DNA of 64,000 nucleotides from Paracoccaceae bacterium (GTDB taxonomy: Bacteria > Pseudomonadota > Alphaproteobacteria > Rhodobacterales > Rhodobacteraceae). Position numbers and translations under genes: made by a program. The stretch covers positions 468 to 64,467 of the forward strand of contig JABSSD010000025.1 in assembly GCA_013214575.1 (NCBI GenBank), written 5' to 3'. Below the pieces are notes generated by a model that had not been told where the DNA came from, made no database searches, and worked only from the letters and a program-made list of their open reading frames with translations. Below are positions 36,005 through 45,632 of this stretch, piece after piece. Position 1 is the stretch's first letter, and each line of letters starts with the position of its first letter.

Positions 36005-36832
36005 ATGTCCAACGCCCAGCTGGAAACCGCCATCGAAGCTGCCTGGGAGGTCCGCGATAGCATCACTCCCGCCGCTACCGGAGAGGCCCGTGAGGCCATA
36101 CAAGACACGCTGAATGCGTTGGATTCCGGCAGCCTGCGGGTCGCAGAAAAGCAGGAAAATGGCGATTGGAAGGTCAACCAATGGGCCAAAAAAGCCGTTC
36201 TTCTGGGCTTTCGCATCAAAGATATGGAAATGCAATCTGGCGGCCCACAGGGCAGCGGCTGGTGGGACAAGGTCGACAGCAAATTTAAGGGCTGGGGCGA
36301 AGAGCAATGGAAAGCAGCAGGGTTCCGCGCCGTTCCCAACGCCATCGTTCGCAAATCCGCCTTTGTCGCCCCCGGTGTGGTGCTGATGCCGTCCTTTATT
36401 AACCTAGGCGCCTATGTCGACGAAGGCACCATGGTTGACACCTGGGCCACGGTTGGGTCCTGCGCTCAGATTGGTAAGAACGTTCACCTGTCCGGTGGCG
36501 TTGGTATTGGCGGCGTGCTGGAACCGATGCAGGCCGGCCCAACCATCATCGAAGACAACTGCTTTATCGGCGCCCGTTCAGAAGTCGTCGAAGGCTGCAT
36601 CATCCGCGAAGGTGCAGTGCTTGGCATGGGAGTCTACATCGGCCAGTCCACCAAAATTGTTGACCGCGAAACTGGTGAAGTCATGTACGGAGAAGTGCCG
36701 CCTTACTCGGTGGTTGTGTCCGGCTCAATGCCATCGAAAAATGGTGTCAGCCTGTACTGCGCGGTGATTGTGAAACGCGTTGATGCTAAAACACGCTCCA
36801 AGACTGCCATCAACGAGCTTCTGCGCGACTGA
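36005..36832 (+). CDS. dapD: 2,3,4,5-tetrahydropyridine-2,6-dicarboxylate N-succinyltransferase
   Basis: 275-aa ORF with an N-terminal helical domain and hexapeptide repeats ([38 protein letters not shown]). Confidence 0.9.
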
Positions 36833-38264: not shown

Positions 38265-39836
38265 TTACGGTAACGACAGCAGCCGAGTTTCGTGTGACTG
38301 TAATTCTGGGCGCGCAGTCGGGCCATATCCGTTCTGGCCGTCTATCAACTCAAGAATTTCGGCTCGGGTCTCTGCATCAAAAGCATCCAGGGTTTCGGCA
38401 CCGGGATGGTAGCTTTCACTCTCGAGCCCGTTGCCACAGACAATTTCATGCTGATCAAAAAGCAAATGCACATACGTCACTTGGCGGCCATCCGCCTGCA
38501 CCCGAATCGTACTGTCGTTGATCAGATGCTTCGCCTTGACCAATACCTCGGACTGGCCAAATAGAAGATCAGCGCGTTCCGAAGTGATCAGCACCCGATG
38601 ATTGGGAGAGACCGCAATGCAGTCGTGATTGCCAAGTGCCCCAGCCGAAAAGACCACCGGCGCATTGCACCCTTCGGCACAGCGTGAACTGCGTCCAACC
38701 CATCGCAGAGGCTGTGGACCATGGTCTCGGGTTTTAATCAGAGCGCCTATTTCCAGTTCTTCAACGGCCATTGGGCCATTTTCTGTATTGATCAATGTTC
38801 CGGCCACAAAACAAGGCGGGGAGGACACTTCGGTTGTGACATCCACAAATCCAACGTCAGTATTCCCCAAGTCATCCTCAACCGTATAGGAAAACGTGTT
38901 GGTTTCATCCACATCGCTGTCATTGGTGATCGAAAACGTTCCGTCAGCATTCAGCGTCACCACTTCGCCGGTGGCCAGGGTAACCGAATCGCCGGCCGTA
39001 ACCGGCTGGCCATTAATGTGGGTAATCGTCAGGCTGGCCCCTGCAGTGTGAATGTCGTTATCCAGAACATCCAGATCCTCGGACCCATCGCCAGAAATCG
39101 TCACCTCGTCATCAATTGCTATCAATTCAGTCTGAATGGAATCGCCGGCGATCAGGAGATTGGAATCGTAGATACCGTCGCCAGCGTCAGCGATTCCGAT
39201 CTTGATGGTGTTTTCCTGGCCTGGGATCACTGTCGCCTTGAGCGTCAAGGTTACCGTAAAGCCATCCATCTCGGTGTTGTAGGTATCATCGGTTGGCGCA
39301 TTGTCGACATAGAGGTTCTGGTTTGATCCATCATTGATGTTGTCGATCGAAATATCGCCTTCCCCAATGGTCAGTTCAGCCTGCACCCCGTTGACCCAAA
39401 TACCAACTGCGTCATTAAATCCCTCATTTACGTATTCCAGATACTCCTCGGAGGAAAAGGTTATCTGCATGGTCAGGGTCGTGCCTTCGGGCACAAATGT
39501 TGCCTCAAACACTGCGGCGTCATAGGTTCGCACACCGGCAATATCGGTCAGCTCGCTGGTGCCAGCCAAATGGTGGTTTGTAGAGGTCCCGGCCTGGGCA
39601 TTCACATCACCACTGCTGTTGGTGATGTCCTCAGCCCGACCGGTGGAGAGAATAACACCGGTGTCGGAGGGGGTAATATCCCCGGCCACCAGATCCCCAT
39701 CGGTATAAATTCCCGAGGCGGAGGCGGCGCCAGAATAGCTGGCACTAACAATGGAAATGCCATTTCCAAACATGGCATTTGCCATATCCATCGCACTGGC
39801 ACTGATATCAATTGGCAATTCAGACGCGGCGGGCAT
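38265..39836 (-). CDS. Hint-domain protein, paralog 1: choice-of-anchor-L-like N-terminal domain, cadherin-like repeat, C-terminal Hint (bacterial intein-like)
   Basis: 523-aa ORF with no signal peptide. Head motifs GVILSTGRA, ITFSSEEYLEYV, NTEMDGFTVTLTL and IKIGIADAGDGIYDSNLLIAG. Repeat LDVLDNDIH...LTITHINGQ. Hint start PCFVAGTLINTENG (Cys codon 38811-38813) and SPNHRVL block. Confidence 0.85.
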   Translation of the reverse strand: MPAASELPIDISASAMDMANAMFGNGISIVSASYSGAASASGIYTDGDLVAGDITPSDTGVILSTGRAEDITNSSGDVNAQAGTSTNHHLAGTSELTDIAGVRTYDAAVFEATFVPEGTTLTMQITFSSEEYLEYVNEGFNDAVGIWVNGVQAELTIGEGDISIDNINDGSNQNLYVDNAPTDDTYNTEMDGFTVTLTLKATVIPGQENTIKIGIADAGDGIYDSNLLIAGDSIQTELIAIDDEVTISGDGSEDLDVLDNDIHTAGASLTITHINGQPVTAGDSVTLATGEVVTLNADGTFSITNDSDVDETNTFSYTVEDDLGNTDVGFVDVTTEVSSPPCFVAGTLINTENGPMAVEELEIGALIKTRDHGPQPLRWVGRSSRCAEGCNAPVVFSAGALGNHDCIAVSPNHRVLITSERADLLFGQSEVLVKAKHLINDSTIRVQADGRQVTYVHLLFDQHEIVCGNGLESESYHPGAETLDAFDAETRAEILELIDGQNGYGPTARPELQSHETRLLSLP

Positions 39837-39991
39837 GTTTGCTTCCTCGTTAAATGCTATTGGCCATCCTTATTCAATATGAGTTTATAAATGACGAAAT
39901 TTTGGAAATTGGCAGGACTTTTTATCAGTTCTTCGACCCTGCTTCCTGACTCTGGTTGACCGCTGCCCCCGCGCGGGTCTATGGCATCGAC

Positions 39992-40345
39992 ATGGAAAAG
40001 AAGAAAATATCCCGCCAGCAGGTTTACACGCTTGTCGTCCAGATTGGCCGCAAAGAGGGCGATGGCCTGCCCAAAGGCGCCACCGGCGCCGCGCTGATGA
40101 TTTTTGCCTCGGGCATAGATGAGGCCGAAGCGGTGCGCGAAACAGTGGCGATCCTGAAACAGGCGGACACGGCTCCGCTGGATGTCACCGGATATGGCAC
40201 CCTGGCCGAGCGTGAAACCGAAGGTCACGAAATCGAGGCTGAGGAACGTGCTCTGATGCAGCGCGCGCTGGAAGAAAACTCGGTGATTGTGGCCCAGATG
40301 ACGCCGTTTTTTGGCGATGACGAGCCCAGGCTCACGGTTCACTGA
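39992..40345 (+). CDS. Hypothetical protein (117 aa)
   Basis: ATG at 39992 (MEKKKISRQQVYTLVV...), acidic C-terminus, no family recognised. Divergent from paralog 1 and convergent with the channel gene. Confidence 0.5.
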   Translation: MEKKKISRQQVYTLVVQIGRKEGDGLPKGATGAALMIFASGIDEAEAVRETVAILKQADTAPLDVTGYGTLAERETEGHEIEAEERALMQRALEENSVIVAQMTPFFGDDEPRLTVH

Positions 40346-40361
40346 ACATCATACAGACGGC

Positions 40362-41426
40362 CTAGTCGCGCGTCCCAAACCAGCGGCGGTAGATCACATC
40401 ATAGGTTCCATCCTCGCGCAGGGCCAGCAAGGCGCGATTGACATCTTCCACCAGTGGTGAGCCGGCGGGGAAAATGATGCCGTAGTTTTCCTTGAGAAAC
40501 ACAGATCCAACAGTGCGGCCATATCGGTAGCCTTTGTGGGTGGTATAATAACTCAGGATCGGCGCATCAAAGACCACAACCTGAATGTTGCCCACCTCAA
40601 AGGCCTCTTTCAGCGCAGACAGCCCATCATGCCCGCGATAGGCAATCTCGCGCCGGTCAAGAAATCCAGCTGCGGTCGAGCCTTTGATGGTGCCAACGCG
40701 TTTGCCATACAGATCATTGACGGAATTCACCGATCCGGTAATCGCATTGACGGTCATGACCGCAGTGATCTTGGCCACAAACACCGAAACCACAAACAGC
40801 GATGAGACCACCAAAACCACACCAAACATTCGGCCAATTGGCGTGCGCGGCACCCGTTCCTCAAAGCCACCGTTCACCACCAGGTTCAGCGCCCACCAGA
40901 ACGAAGGAAACCAGGCCTCTTTCAACGGTCGGTCGAAATAGGGCTGGGCCCGGCGCTCTAATGCCCACATCAACATACCGCCACCGACCAACAGCACAAA
41001 AGCTATGCCAATGGCCGCCGCCAGATCCCAGGACAACACAGCGTTCAGCAAGGACGGCGTCCGCAGGTCTTCAACCCGAACCATCATCTGCAAACCGCTC
41101 TCAAAAATCGGCTGACTAAAGTCCATTTCGATTTCACGGGCGGCGGTAATGGATATATTGGCAATTGCCAAATCAGCCTCGCCGCCACGCACCAGCCCAA
41201 GCATGTCGGAAAACGCGACAGCCCGGTTGATCTCATAATCCCAGCCCAACCGGTCGGCCAGTTCCGCCAACAGGTCGATGGAGAATCCCGCATCTTGGCC
41301 ATTTTCAACAAATGAAAACGGCGGCCGAGTGACCGTGGCAACAGTCAGTGTCTGCGCGGCCAGGGACTGACCCCAGTTCAACAGCAGAATAAAAAGAGCA
41401 GCAAAAATTCGCAATAAAGGGACCAT
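40362..41426 (-). CDS. Ionotropic-glutamate-receptor-like ligand-gated channel (SBP family-3 lobes split by M1-P-M2)
   Basis: Signal peptide; S1 lobe ([13 protein letters not shown]...[22 protein letters not shown]); [22 protein letters not shown]; pore-loop-like [27 protein letters not shown]; [29 protein letters not shown] (compare iGluR SYTANLAAF); S2 lobe ([16 protein letters not shown]...VVFDAPIL...[11 protein letters not shown]). No TVGYG potassium filter. Confidence 0.75.
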
Positions 41427-41493
41427 TCAGATCATAAAAACACGTAACTTCTGTTTTTAGGCGGAACGCAGCCGCCGCGCAAGTGCGCTGAAT

Positions 41494-42588
41494 TCAGGCG
41501 ATCCGGCGTTCGGCCAATACGGTGGCATCAAAAGACCGCAAAACCGGGTATTTTGAGCGTCCGTGTTCCGGTAGGCCTGATCGGTCCAATTCAGCCAGGA
41601 GACTTGCAGCGAACCGGTTTCGGTCTCGGCGCAGGCGTCCAATAAACAGGCTCTCCACCACCGCGCCGGCGGCCAGCAGGGCGGCATGATCGGGCAACAA
41701 CACTTGCATATAGCGGGTCGTCGGCTTGTCGATCTTGGGCTGAAAGGCTGTATGAGTGGCCAGAAGATGCCGCGCCGGCACCAACACCGACTGCTGGCCA
41801 AATAGGTATTCCACTTCGGATCCTGACAGCACCAGCCGTTGCGACGGGGCGACGTCGATGTCCTGTAACAGGCCAAAATAGGGCGCACGCAACCGGATAG
41901 GCTGGAACGAGCCAGCGGCCGGCACGGACCGTCTCACCACATGCAGCACCGGAACCGTGGTGCCATCACCTGTCAGCACCAGATCGCCCCGCTGCAGTGT
42001 CGACAAAGCCCGGTAGCCCTGCGGTGTGGCAATCGGCGTATGCGCCGCCAGCGATGGCATTGGGCCAACCGGTTCGATCTGATCTGACAGCGCCAGATAT
42101 TGAACATCCGTCGAGACAAACCGAAACGGGCCAGGCTGTAACAGCGCCCTCAGATCCGCCAGGCGCCAGGGTCGCGGCGCCTTCAGCTCGACGATCTGCG
42201 CCTGACCGCCGTCCACCCGCTCCAACGCCAACCGCCCCCAACGCCGCGGCGAATCCCACGAGTAGGTCAGCCGCAACAGGTCAGCCCGGCCCGAATCGGT
42301 TGGGTTCAGGGTCCGATGCTCAACGGTTCCGGACTGCTCCAGAACCAAGTTCAAACCACCGCCCGGGACCGCCCGCAGCGCCAATTTCACCGGCCAATCT
42401 CCATCCTGCGCAAACAACAGCAATGGCTCCGGGCGCTGGCTGTCTGGCAGCCGCATCTCGACCACCAGCGAGCCCCGGACCAACAGGGCATCCGGGTTGC
42501 AGTCCCCTTGTTCAGCGGAAGCACCGGGTTCAATTCCGCCCGCGTCAAATTGATCGAAATTCGAGGATGACACCGCCAGCCAAACCAT
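41494..42588 (-). CDS. Hint-domain protein with substituted catalytic residues (Cys to Ser, block-B His to Gln) and an unknown ~175-aa N-terminal domain
   Basis: The ATG lies 4 nt after the paralog-2 stop. PSLAAHTPIATPQG aligns with PCFVAGTLIRTPYG, and DVAPSQRLVL aligns with RVSPQHRVLV. The C-terminal tail (YPVLRSFDATVLAE) is shared with the paralogs. Confidence 0.75.
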   Translation of the reverse strand: MVWLAVSSSNFDQFDAGGIEPGASAEQGDCNPDALLVRGSLVVEMRLPDSQRPEPLLLFAQDGDWPVKLALRAVPGGGLNLVLEQSGTVEHRTLNPTDSGRADLLRLTYSWDSPRRWGRLALERVDGGQAQIVELKAPRPWRLADLRALLQPGPFRFVSTDVQYLALSDQIEPVGPMPSLAAHTPIATPQGYRALSTLQRGDLVLTGDGTTVPVLHVVRRSVPAAGSFQPIRLRAPYFGLLQDIDVAPSQRLVLSGSEVEYLFGQQSVLVPARHLLATHTAFQPKIDKPTTRYMQVLLPDHAALLAAGAVVESLFIGRLRRDRNRFAASLLAELDRSGLPEHGRSKYPVLRSFDATVLAERRIA

Positions 42589-42592
42589 CAGA

Positions 42593-44164
42593 TCAAGCAG
42601 CCTCGGTTGCGGACAACAGCCGCGCTTCGTATGATTTCAAGGTCGGCCGGGCGGCACCACCGTATCCTTCTCCGGTGGCCGGATCCAGTTCAGGGAACAA
42701 CGCGCAGATCTCATCGACAACCGGCTGTTCCAACAGATTTGTGGTCAGCGGACCCGGCAGGAAACTTTCAGTCTCCAGCCCTTCGGAGAAAATCACCTGA
42801 TGGCGGTCAAACATCAGATGCACATAAGTTACCTCGCCGCCGGGGCTGCGGGTCACCGAGCGGTCATTGAGCAAGTCCTTGGCGGCCACCAGCACCTCGG
42901 CCTCTCCGAACAGCAACTCGGCCAGACTGTCGCGCACCAGAACCCGGTGCTGAGGTGAAACCCGCAAATCACGGTGGGACCCAAAGGTCCCTTTGCGAAT
43001 GTGAATGGGGGCAAAATCGCCTTCGGCCTCGACCAGCCGGGCACCAATCCAGCGGATCGGCTGGGCGCCATCGTCACGGGTCACCACCAGATCACCGGGC
43101 TGCAGATCTTCCACCGCCAATTCACCGTAAGGGGTGCGGATCAGTGTTCCGGCCACAAAACAAGGGATCGAGCTGACGTTGACAAAACCGGTATCACTAT
43201 TGCCACCGTTCGACGCCGTGTAGGTGAAATTGAAGTTCTCGGTGTCACCGTCACCGGTCAATGTCAGGGTGCCATCCGCGTTCAGAAGAACCGTCTGGCC
43301 GGTGTTCAGCGTCACAATTGACCCCGCGGACACCGCGACACCATTCACATGGGTGATGGTCAGCGTGCCGCCGGAATTATCAATGTCATTGGCCAACACG
43401 TCGATGGTCTTGCTGCCGTTTGGATAGAGGTTGGTAGAATCTTCGATCGCGACAAAATCAACCTGCACCGAATCTCCGGCGATCAGGAGATTACTGTCGT
43501 AACTGCTGTCGGACACATCTGCTATGCCGATACGGATGGTGTTTTCCACCCCCGGAATGACATTCATGGTCAGCGTCAGGGTGACCGTCAGCCCGTCCAT
43601 CTCGGTGTTATAGGCATCATTCGAGTTGTCGAGAAACAGGTTTTCATTGGTGGTAGAATTCAGGTTGCCCGGATCAGCATCACCGTTTCCGATCACCAGA
43701 TCGACCTGCACTCCATTGATCCAGACACCCACGAAATCCTGATAAACCGAGTTTTCGAACTCGGGGTATTCCTCGGATGAAAAGATGAATTGCATCGTCA
43801 TTACCCCTGAGTCGGGGATAAAGGTGACGTCTAGATATGAGGCATCATAGGTGTTGGACCCGGCGGCGGCGTTGAAATCGGCATTGTTGTTTTCACCGCT
43901 GGTATTTCGGGATTGGTTGGCGTCTTGGTTCGCCTCACCAGATGAATTGGTATATTCCTTCGCCCGGCCGGTAGACAAGATGACGCCGGTGTCTCCGGGG
44001 GTGGCCCCGGGAGCAATGCTATCGCCATTGGAATAGATCGCCGAGGACCTGCTATCCCCTGTATAGTCGGCGCTGACAACGGTGACACCATCGCCAAAAA
44101 TGGCCTCTGCCATCTGCATGGCACTGGCATTGGTCTGATAAGTAAGCTCTGACGCTGCAACCAT
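42593..44164 (-). CDS. Hint-domain protein, paralog 2: choice-of-anchor-L-like N-terminal domain, cadherin-like repeat, C-terminal Hint
   Basis: 523-aa ORF with no signal peptide. About 57% identity to paralog 1 over the first 70 aa, aligned by eye. Motifs FIFSSEEYPEF, NTEMDGLTVTLTL, IRIGIADVSDSSYDSNLLIAG, IDVLANDID...LTITHVNG, IPCFVAGTLIRTPYG (Cys codon 43160-43162) and SPQHRVL. Confidence 0.85.
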   Translation of the reverse strand: MVAASELTYQTNASAMQMAEAIFGDGVTVVSADYTGDSRSSAIYSNGDSIAPGATPGDTGVILSTGRAKEYTNSSGEANQDANQSRNTSGENNNADFNAAAGSNTYDASYLDVTFIPDSGVMTMQFIFSSEEYPEFENSVYQDFVGVWINGVQVDLVIGNGDADPGNLNSTTNENLFLDNSNDAYNTEMDGLTVTLTLTMNVIPGVENTIRIGIADVSDSSYDSNLLIAGDSVQVDFVAIEDSTNLYPNGSKTIDVLANDIDNSGGTLTITHVNGVAVSAGSIVTLNTGQTVLLNADGTLTLTGDGDTENFNFTYTASNGGNSDTGFVNVSSIPCFVAGTLIRTPYGELAVEDLQPGDLVVTRDDGAQPIRWIGARLVEAEGDFAPIHIRKGTFGSHRDLRVSPQHRVLVRDSLAELLFGEAEVLVAAKDLLNDRSVTRSPGGEVTYVHLMFDRHQVIFSEGLETESFLPGPLTTNLLEQPVVDEICALFPELDPATGEGYGGAARPTLKSYEARLLSATEAA

Positions 44165-44486
44165 GTCTCTGCCTCATTCCTCAATGAGACAAAACATCCG
44201 GCGCGAGGGTTCTCCCCCCGTCACGTTACACGGACCCCGCCTGTTGACGGTGGCTGAAAATGTGGTCCCGCTATTACGGTGACCGCTGTGCTCGGATGCC
44301 CTGCCTCGGGTTATTTATTAACAATTCTTTAACATGTATTACCGCCCGCTGTCATCCGACCAGAAAAATTCACGTCATGTCGCTGCTTTTACGCCACATT
44401 TCCAAGACAGGCTTGCCACTGCACGAATTGCGTCACCTCCAAATTCGCGCTAATCCAAGGCAACCCACATTTGCCGGAGCCCTCTG

Positions 44487-45632
44487 ATGTCCCCAATTGA
44501 CCCTGCCCGCCTCACCGCCGATCTAATCCGCTGCGCCTCGGTTACCCCGGTTGAGGGCGGCGCATTGGTGCTGCTGGAAAAGCAACTGACCGAGGGCGGT
44601 TTCACCTGTTGCCGCGTTGATCGCGGCGGTGTCAGCAATCTGTTTGCCCGCTGGGGTGACAAGGGGCACGCCCGCACATTTGGCTTTAACGGCCATACCG
44701 ATGTGGTGCCGCTGGGGGATGAGGCCGCCTGGACCATGCCGCCGTTTGGCGCCGAGGAGAAAGACGGGTTCATGTATGGCCGTGGCGCCACAGACATGAA
44801 ATCCGGGGTTGCCGCCTTTGTGGCGGCGGCGATTGATTTTGTCGGCGACACCCCTCCCGACGGGGCCGTGATCCTGACCATCACCGGCGACGAAGAAGGC
44901 GATGCCATTGATGGCACCACCGCGCTGCTGGACTATATGGCGGCTGAGGATGAGGCGATGTCAGTCTGTCTGGTTGGCGAGCCTACCTGCCCCGACAGCA
45001 TGGGTGAGATGATCAAGATCGGTCGGCGCGGGTCGATGACCGCCTGGTTTACGGTTACCGGCGTGCAGGGGCACTCGGCCTATCCGCACCGCGCCAACAA
45101 CCCGCTGAACGCCATGGTGCGGCTGATGGATCATCTGGCCAGTCATCAGCTGGATCAGGGCACCGCGCATTTTGATGCCTCAACGCTGGCGGTGGTGACC
45201 ATCGACACCGGCAACAACGCCACCAACGTCATCCCCGCGCAGGCAAATGCGACGGTGAACATCCGCTTTAACGACTCCCATTCCGGCGCCAGCCTGAGCC
45301 AATGGCTGCGCGACGAATCCTCCAAAATCGCCGCTGAGTTTGGCCTTGAAATCGGGGTCAGAATATCGATCTCCGGCGAGAGCTTCATCACCGCCCCCGG
45401 GCCACTGTCAGATCTGGTTTCCGCATCGGTCGAAGCAGAGTGCGGCGTCAAACCCGAACTGTCGACCACTGGCGGCACCTCGGACGCGCGCTTTGTAAAG
45501 AACCACTGCCCGGTGGTGGAATTTGGTCTTGTTGGCCGCACCATGCACCAGGTGGACGAACGGGTAGAAGTCGCACAGATCCACCAGTTAAAGGCAATCT
45601 ACAGCCGTATTCTGACGGATTATTTTGGATGA
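44487..45632 (+). CDS. dapE: Succinyl-diaminopimelate desuccinylase
   Basis: 381-aa M20 peptidase with [24 protein letters not shown] and GTSDARF. Confidence 0.9.

Follow-up and report, generated by a model that had tools for sequence, protein, structure and literature searches.

A conserved Roseobacter-group operon pairs a choice-of-anchor-L protein bearing an intact Hint domain with a catalytically degenerate Hint paralogue

B-type bacterial intein-like (BIL) domains carry the motifs of inteins minus the C-terminal one, and their N-terminal flank is cleaved as it is by inteins (PMC7765530, PMC5874633). Both this autocleavage and the link of B-type BIL domains to secreted and RTX proteins have been established since 2003–2004 (reviewed in PMC7765530, PMC5874633), and fast-responding marine Rhodobacteraceae are enriched in BIL domains, amongst other Pfam families (PMC12487129). 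Their biological role has been open for about 20 years, and the locus described here offers a good experimental entry point to it. We analysed 64,000 nucleotides of contig JABSSD010000025.1 from the Paracoccaceae bacterium assembly GCA_013214575.1 (positions 468 to 64,467 of the forward strand; hereafter the window, whose coordinates are used throughout). The window encodes two related Hint-domain proteins, P1 and P2, and directly downstream of P2 a third protein, the partner, in which the Hint domain is catalytically degenerate. P2 and the partner are a conserved core pair of the Roseobacter group.

P1 (38265–39836) and P2 (42593–44164) are both maximal minus-strand open reading frames (ORFs) of 523 amino acids (aa), as an earlier note on this DNA had reported. 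That note had put their identity at 55–60% by eye; BLASTP over the full length gave 51% identity and 67% similarity (E 2e-175), so the figure was slightly too high whilst the relatedness stands far beyond chance. Its reading of the domains was borne out by profile searches. Each protein begins with a choice-of-anchor-L head that covers the full length of the NF038133 model (P1 aa 17–233, 176.8 bits; P2 aa 17–232, 43469–44116, 143.9 bits; curated cutoff, 27 bits). This is followed by a cadherin-like, Ig-like domain matching Big_9 in Pfam, with weaker matches to Cadherin_4/5 (P1 aa 239–334; P2 aa 238–330, 43175–43453, E 1.7e-7), and by a Hint domain (Hint_2, PF13403; P1 aa 341–479, 38400–38816, E 1.4e-47; P2 aa 334–471, 42752–43165, E 9.2e-54). 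The Pro-Cys pairs numbered in the note, P341-C342 in P1 (Cys codon, 38811–38813) and P334-C335 in P2 (Cys codon TGT, 43160–43162), and the SPNH and SPQH motifs are present, all on the minus strand. Only a short conserved tail follows, of 44 aa in P1 (38268–38399) and 52 aa in P2 (aa 472–523, 42596–42751), and no toxin domain was found in either tail, again as the note had it. The orthologue groups are large (3,642 matches for P2 and 3,285 for P1 among the scored candidates), and their members are ~520–530 aa long with PF26766 and PF13403; PF26766, the Choice_anch_L family of Pfam, is precomputed on all P1 and P2 orthologues. NCBI names the orthologues 'Hint domain-containing' or 'choice-of-anchor L domain-containing' protein, and some are misnamed after the neighbouring dapD.

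Structure prediction, one of the checks that the earlier note had proposed, agreed with these assignments. In the AlphaFold2 (AF2) model of P2 (pLDDT 74.6), the head is a jelly-roll β-sandwich with its best fold match in the PDB to the MAM-Ig module 2c9a of RPTPμ, followed by meprin MAM domains, and the β strands of the Ig-like domain are predicted at aa 242–331. The Hint region superposes on the Clostridium thermocellum BIL structure 2lwy and on several inteins (Foldseek, TM 0.57–0.66 on target length). When the PDB was searched by sequence, with single sequences and with family profiles, the only matches were marginal ones of the N-terminal part of Hint to 2lwy and gp41-1, and no close relative has therefore been solved. 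Mean identity within P2 is greatest in the Hint domain (76%), followed by the head (68%), the Ig domain (62%) and the tail (60%).

The residues expected of an active Hint domain are strongly conserved in an alignment of 84 P2, 17 P1 and 76 partner sequences. The catalytic cysteine is present in 83/84 P2 sequences (Cys335) and 17/17 P1 sequences. S403-P-x-H406 corresponds to the block-B (T/S)xxH motif, and both S403 and H406 are invariant in P2; H397, H449 and H455 are likewise invariant, D453 is kept in 98% of P2 sequences, and all of these residues are retained in every aligned P1, so the catalytic set of P2 is intact. In P1, P2 and distant relatives, the domain ends in E466-S467-(F/Y)-x-P-G, with neither His-Asn nor a +1 nucleophile. 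Other features of canonical (class 1–3) inteins were also absent from P1 and P2, namely a homing endonuclease and insertion into a conserved host protein, and the C-terminal flank is just 44–52 aa. By its motifs, this is the pattern that reviews describe for B-type BIL domains, a class from which one would expect a secreted head to be autoprocessed. Given that the catalytic Cys and S-x-x-H are essentially invariant in P1 and P2, autoprocessing at the Pro-Cys junction is plausible, with Pro334|Cys335 as the predicted scissile bond of P2. A precedent, and indirect evidence of BIL processing in secreted Roseobacter proteins, comes from Ruegeria pomeroyi DSS-3, where the abundant 2,164-aa RTX exoprotein YP_168868 has an internal intein-like region running from ...NNCFVAG to ...RVHN, for which no peptides were detected in the exoproteome (PMC2953401).

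The tail of P2 has a conserved pattern of its own (E485, F490-P-E-L, G500-Y, R506, L509, E513 and L517) and is predicted to form a helix-loop-helix (AF2 helices at 480–489 and 511–522; confidence across the tail just 54–75). RTX relatives carry the same tail after Hint_2, for example '...LFPEL...YPAARxxLKxxEAxxL', and Hint_2 plus tail also occurs in plasmid-borne proteins of Phaeobacter, Aliiroseovarius, Paracoccus, Sinorhizobium and Acetobacter, with at least 80% of the combined 190 aa covered in 93/200 plasmid records. The recurrence of the same tail after Hint_2 in both settings argues that Hint_2 and tail are one module of ~190 aa, hereafter the cassette. In each of the three plasmid regions inspected, the cassette forms the extreme C-terminus of its protein. 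The Aliiroseovarius crassostreae plasmid NZ_CP080779.1 encodes a protein of 1,437 aa with the cassette at its end (L086:5248-9561), directly upstream of a very large gene (L086:10239-18555) annotated as SpvB/TcaC N-terminal domain-containing (toxin-complex-like). The cassette is thus also found on large plasmid-borne proteins, possibly in toxin-related contexts.

The partner (41494–42588, minus strand; 364 aa) starts 4 nt past the P2 stop codon and comprises a LamG/ConA-like N-domain (aa 1–176), a degenerate Hint_2 domain (aa 178–317; Pfam E 1e-31) and a tail (aa 318–364). Its Hint and tail align with those of P1 and P2 over 184 columns (hhalign probability 99.95%, E 9e-38). The position of the catalytic cysteine is occupied by Ser179 in the window and by S (35), T (21), A (9), G (9), N (1) or W (1) across the 76 partner sequences, never by Cys. 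His406 is replaced by Gln in 93% and D453 by Pro in 90%, and H397 is replaced by Q or L, whilst residues that mark the fold are kept (P334, T344, G347, G357, P386, E466-S467 and G471). On this pattern the partner is predicted to be unable to cleave itself at the Cys-equivalent junction. The AF2 model of the partner (pLDDT 91.5, pTM 0.89) is one compact unit, in which the 176-aa N-domain is a ConA/LamG-type jelly-roll matching neurexin LNS, laminin LG, CBM40 and galectin domains, and the C-terminal half has the Hint fold, with best matches to the Tetrahymena BUBL BIL2 domain and inteins. A first MAFFT alignment had hinted that the N-terminal half might be a reduced form of the P2 head or Ig domain; this was rejected on an hhalign probability of 0.3% and on the LamG/ConA-like fold.

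Within the partner, identity is greater in the Hint domain (59%) and tail (53%) than in the N-domain (41%). As Hint and tail are the best-conserved region of the protein even though the domain is catalytically degenerate, the cassette must also have a non-catalytic function. Taken further, the cassette could be mainly a non-catalytic export, docking or assembly module, with P2 and the partner joined by their Hint-plus-tail units into a two-subunit surface complex in which cleavage is incidental, rare or regulatory. The constraint on the partner's Hint fold and tail despite loss of Cys, the block-B His and D453 fits this explanation, as do the compactness of its AF2 model (pTM 0.89) and the position of the cassette, always at the extreme C-terminus across protein sizes. 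The catalytic residues of P1 and P2, however, are invariant across genera, which is hard to explain unless the chemistry is used, and we consider a mainly non-catalytic cassette unlikely.

How such proteins might leave the cell was approached through their termini and their relatives. Neither P1 nor P2 has a Sec signal peptide, as the earlier note had stated; this was judged by eye from the sequence rather than with a dedicated predictor, the N-termini being polar and the head beginning at residue 2–3. An in-frame stop codon just upstream of each ORF leaves no room for a hidden signal peptide. A search for C-terminal sorting signals with hidden Markov models (HMMs) gave no match in P1 or P2, no HemolysinCabind match (Pfam) was found in P1, P2 or the partner, and no ORF in the window has two or more GGxGxD repeats. 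A HMMER scan of 1.84 billion representatives recovered 5,885 relatives of the P2 head, and we sorted the 104 full-length sequences among the best 150 of these into architecture classes. The largest class (42/104) has a head at the N-terminus without a signal peptide, then RTX repeats (5–47 GGxGxD) and a C-terminal Hint_2 plus tail, in proteins of 700–2,400 aa; a further 6/104 are of the P1/P2 type without RTX. Head plus RTX without Hint accounted for 9/104, a signal-peptide-like N-terminus plus head for 17/104, other proteins with an internal head for 24/104 and other proteins with an N-terminal head lacking a signal peptide for 6/104. The closest head relatives (45–55% head identity) combine head, RTX, Hint_2 and the same tail, several head plus RTX proteins without Hint end in D/N-hydrophobic termini typical of type I secretion system (T1SS) substrates (for example ...DAQDFLFV), and more distant heads follow Sec-type signal peptides.

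A sample of these classes was confirmed with curated HMMs. Choice_anch_L, HemolysinCabind and Hint_2 were found together in P0251, P0263 and P0288; P0247 combines choice_anch_L with RTX and matches the end of the PueAB esterase model with its C-terminus; sorting signals were found in P0340 (LPXTG), P0366 (LPxTATN/LPXTG) and P0370 (IPTL-CTERM). Of the HMM-confirmed relatives, those with a Sec signal end in LPXTG, LPxTATN or IPTL-CTERM, and those lacking a signal peptide carry either RTX followed by a T1SS-like terminus or Hint_2 with the tail. The proposal of the earlier note, that the Hint domain occupies the C-terminal slot where other choice-of-anchor-L heads carry anchors, thus holds up as judged from these domain assignments. 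RTX repeats are characteristic of type-I-secreted proteins. This family context would account for the missing signal peptide of P1 and P2, and it puts the cassette where the T1SS signal normally lies.

The same observations bear on whether the proteins are exported at all. If they were intracellular autoprocessing proteins, with the head and partner domains binding a cytoplasmic ligand, there would be no puzzle in the lack of a Sec signal, of RTX repeats and of linked secretion genes, nor in the location of the locus among the housekeeping genes dapD, dapE and that for RNase R. Against this, the HMM-confirmed contexts of the head are all extracellular ones (LPXTG, IPTL-CTERM or RTX), MAM-, Ig- and LamG-type folds are typical extracellular modules, and the closest homologues in whole architecture have up to 47 RTX repeats. 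A purely cytoplasmic role is, on balance, very unlikely.

Conservation of the locus was assessed in 83 loci, comprising 80 species-level Roseobacter-group genome loci plus 3 others, all of which contain P2 by construction. P2 orthologues are 59–97% identical over these loci, with dapE adjoining in every one; the 97% identical orthologue is that of Parasedimentitalea psychrophila. The gene order in relatives is dapE (−), P2 (+), partner (+), the channel gene where present, a small ORF (−), P1 where present, and dapD (−), the strands being given relative to one another. In the window, the set of P2, partner, channel gene, small ORF and P1 is likewise enclosed by dapE (44487–45632) on the P2 side and dapD (36005–36832) on the P1 side. 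The partner was present in 75/83 loci and P1 in this interval in just 16/83, from which we take P2 and the partner as the core pair and P1 as an older paralogue kept only in some lineages (R. pomeroyi, for example, has a P1 orthologue). P1 orthologues appear frameshifted or split at three loci (L001:14323-15900, L008:12301-13867 and L062:14045-15603), where sequencing errors are possible; in P. psychrophila, P1 is called as two pieces of 433 and 80 aa. Together with its absence from the interval in most species, these apparent frameshifts suggest that P1 is dispensable whilst P2 and the partner are retained. P1 also differs in composition (G+C 0.531, compared to 0.560 for P2 and 0.626 for the partner; G+C at third codon positions 0.574, 0.662 and 0.701, respectively). 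Both of its values lie below those of the flanking housekeeping genes, which explains the dip in G+C at 38–40 kb, and P1 is not accompanied by a partner gene. A scan of the 64-kb window found no Hint, head or RTX ORFs beyond P1, P2 and the partner.

The low G+C (0.531) and patchy presence of P1, and the fact that Hint domains release C-terminal toxins in polymorphic toxin systems, raise the question of a polymorphic-toxin (PT-HINT), phage-derived, anti-phage defence or mobile-intein origin. Several observations speak against this. Hint is followed by no toxin domain but by a short tail that is conserved and not polymorphic; nothing resembling an immunity gene is present, the downstream gene being a Hint paralogue; neither PHROGs nor PADLOC gave matches; and the domain has no homing endonuclease, His-Asn or +1 nucleophile and is not inserted in a conserved host protein. 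The locus is also syntenic and vertically conserved in 80 species. With the nulls in PHROGs and PADLOC, the conserved tail and the synteny, identity as a toxin, phage, defence or mobile-intein element is effectively refuted, and we regard it as scarcely credible.

The region upstream of P2 contains a candidate regulatory site. Predictions of CtrA sites in the Roseobacter group have used the consensus TTAA-N7-TTAAC (PMC4046655), and a CtrA-type box of this kind, TTAAAGAATTGTTAA (TTAA-N7-TTAA; 44318–44332, minus strand), lies in the divergent dapE–P2 intergenic region, 168 nt upstream of the P2 start. A perfect box was found at −153 to −183 in 31/84 loci (shuffle mean, 0.19), and at least 7/8 box positions were matched in 48/84 loci compared to 5/84 shuffled sequences and 1/84 coding controls. 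This suggests that the P2 operon may belong to the CtrA regulon (motility, lifestyle switching). There was no credible Rfam match to a regulatory RNA upstream, and a scan for sigma-70 promoters and terminators in the same region returned fewer sites than in shuffled sequences and was uninformative.

Taking these lines together, our preferred reading joins Sec-independent export, Hint cleavage of the head-Ig portion, cooperation with the partner and CtrA-tied expression, and we hold it tentatively, as somewhat short of an even chance. P2, and P1 where it is retained, would be an exported adhesin- or recognition-type protein made of a MAM-like jelly-roll head, an Ig-like stalk and a processing cassette of ~190 aa. 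We infer that P2 would leave the cell without Sec; a type I secretion system is the likeliest route, with the C-terminus going first and the tail serving as the secretion signal or as part of it. The folded Hint domain would then perform an N-to-S acyl shift at Pro334-Cys335 (Pro341-Cys342 in P1), and the thioester would be resolved, most simply by water, parting a head-Ig fragment of ~334 aa from the Hint-tail fragment. The partner would probably use its own cassette non-catalytically, in export or docking, and work with P2, and expression of the P2–partner operon would be tied to CtrA.

Several points weigh against this preferred reading. P1 and P2 themselves have no RTX repeats, and no T1SS genes were found in the conserved neighbourhood or beside the three plasmid-borne genes with the cassette; T1SS substrates are often unlinked to their secretion genes. 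T1SS signals are usually less conserved than the P2 tail, and the conservation of the tail would be at least as much in keeping with a structured element that has a function as with a secretion signal. The residue at −1 is Pro in 100% of P2 sequences, and a Pro in this position disfavours the N-S acyl shift of model inteins, so that P2 cleavage may be slow, conditional or absent; −1 Pro is not universal in the wider family, as just 16/49 Hint domains of distant head relatives start with 'PCF'. The expectation of autocleavage also depends on Pfam Hint_2 being the 'B-type BIL' of Amitai and Dassa, which we take to be the case from shared motifs and host taxa. As the CtrA-type box is about equally far from the divergent dapE and could serve dapE, P2 or both, its assignment to P2 is something we infer. 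Finally, the literature searched contained no experiment or proteome in which P1, P2 or the partner was seen to be exported or cleaved, and none of the three is mentioned in the exoproteome papers searched, YP_168868 being the only related item.

Resolution of the thioester by water is the simplest outcome, and a Hedgehog-style transfer would be another. In that case an envelope lipid, glycan, or protein amine or hydroxyl would resolve the Cys335 thioester and the head-Ig fragment would become covalently attached by the C-terminus created in this way; the tail would play the part of the sterol-recognition (adduct-recognition) region (SRR) of the Hog domain, and the dead-Hint partner might be an adaptor or acceptor. 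P1 and P2 have the Hint fold and a Cys-Phe start, the latter preceded by Pro and not by the Gly of Hedgehog, and a tail of ~50 aa that is predicted as helix-loop-helix. The position of Hint in the slot of sorting and anchor signals of other choice-of-anchor-L proteins fits such a transfer, and the conserved tail of ~50 aa, with two predicted helices directly after Hint, resembles the SRR. The best fold match of the partner's Hint domain is Tetrahymena BUBL BIL2, which joins amines to the sequence on its N-terminal side. Of intein chemistry, P1 and P2 keep the N-terminal half alone, as Hedgehog does (PMC7664689). B-type BIL domains expressed heterologously, however, give cleavage products without any acceptor (PMC7765530, PMC5874633). 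The tail is, moreover, equally conserved in the catalytically dead partner, which argues that its main role is not to serve thioester chemistry, and the resemblance to the SRR is drawn from a part of the AF2 model with a confidence of only 54–75. We therefore regard Hedgehog-style transfer as quite improbable. A bolder version makes the cassette a bacterial counterpart of Hog, an enzyme-free 'self-sortase' that would pass the head-Ig fragment from the Cys335 thioester to a defined envelope nucleophile and so replace LPXTG- or exosortase-type anchoring, with the partner as adaptor, acceptor or timing factor and the whole switched by CtrA in the swim-to-stick transition; this would be a long shot.

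Two further genes lie between the partner and P1. The GluR0-like channel gene, of the prokaryotic glutamate-receptor type (40362–41426, minus strand; SBP_bac_3, Lig_chan-Glu_bd, Lig_chan and Ion_trans_2), sits between the partner and the small ORF in about one third of related loci. The small ORF (39956–40345, plus strand, opposite to P2) is listed as 129 aa from a TTG start, and the true protein is probably ~115 aa, beginning at MEKKKISRQQVY. It is 72–91% identical in most of 84 Roseobacter loci (one outlier, 59%), a greater conservation than that of P2, and it invariably falls between dapD and the partner (or channel) gene, with its coding strand opposite to that of P2. It had no match in Pfam, NCBIfam, PHROGs or PADLOC. 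An antisense ORF of 161 aa that overlaps it (39857–40342, minus strand) is not conserved.

The earlier note had overlooked the co-operonic partner with its dead Hint domain, the RTX relatives that point to type I secretion, the synteny, the uneven retention of P1 and the CtrA-type box. It had also stated that the role of the abundant Rhodobacteraceae Hint proteins is unassigned. This last point stands insofar as the literature searched contained nothing on Roseobacter Hint proteins, and it goes too far in that BIL autocleavage has been known since 2003–2004 and all of the building-block families are known, the exact architecture being annotated by NCBI and Pfam in thousands of proteins. In the same literature we found no description of an operon of an active and a dead Hint protein or of its core-genome synteny, of the 190-aa Hint-plus-tail cassette as a unit, of the CtrA-type box, or of the series that leads from anchors through RTX/T1SS termini to Hint plus tail. 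If the locus served only the autoproteolytic maturation of an adhesin, it would be a modest extension of known BIL biology. It is nevertheless a clean test bed, in that a single syntenic, conserved operon encodes one catalytically intact Hint protein and a natural dead paralogue, in a group that includes laboratory model species such as R. pomeroyi. Work on it could tell whether Hint cassettes serve to release proteins, to direct their secretion or to anchor them covalently, how choice-of-anchor heads without a signal peptide get to the surface, and whether these proteins are members of a CtrA-controlled attachment programme that shapes Roseobacter–alga interactions.

Compared to known systems, P1 and P2 come nearest to B-type BIL domains in their Hint fold, N-terminal Cys, block-B (S/T)xxH and lack of His-Asn and a +1 nucleophile, in their alphaproteobacterial (Rhodobacter-type) hosts, and in an association with secreted, RTX-type proteins and an expected N-terminal autocleavage. 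They differ in their setting. Whereas textbook BIL domains have been described in hypervariable regions of non-conserved proteins, P2 is syntenic and 59–97% identical with Hint as its best-conserved domain, this domain is fused to a choice-of-anchor-L head, and the operon of P2 also encodes a Hint paralogue that is catalytically dead. To our knowledge, the conserved tail of ~50 aa is not part of the BIL definition either. The internal insert of YP_168868, in contrast to the Hint domains of P1 and P2, ends in His-Asn and is A-type-like.

Like Hedgehog proteins, P1 and P2 consist of an N-terminal functional domain of extracellular type, a Cys-initiated Hint domain and then a C-terminal region (~50–70 aa), and keep only the N-S acyl shift half of intein chemistry, with Cys-Phe at the start of Hint. 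Unlike Hedgehog, they have Pro-Cys-Phe in place of Gly-Cys-Phe, no Sec signal and a bacterial host, and the P2 tail has no detectable sequence relation to the SRR. A functional analogy can be drawn with the self-processing 'clip-and-link' module of Neisseria FrpC-type RTX proteins, which reportedly (Osicka et al. 2004) is autocatalytic, lies within a protein secreted independently of Sec, frees an N-terminal fragment and can link it covalently to another molecule. FrpC is reported to use Ca-dependent Asp-Pro cleavage via an anhydride and not a Hint thioester; fold and chemistry are unrelated to those of P1 and P2, and the likeness is one of function only.

Finally, the head places P1 and P2 amongst the choice-of-anchor L proteins (NF038133/PF26766), whose homologous heads are 31–40% identical and are often followed by Ig- or cadherin-like repeats. 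Choice-of-anchor L surface proteins have a signal peptide and a sortase- or exosortase-type sorting signal, whereas both are missing from P1 and P2, which terminate in Hint_2 and the tail. In this they resemble the giants (700–2,400 aa) built from head, RTX, Hint_2 and tail, with which they share a head that starts at residue 1 without a signal peptide and the same C-terminal cassette, and from which they differ in having a single Big_9 domain in place of the RTX block.

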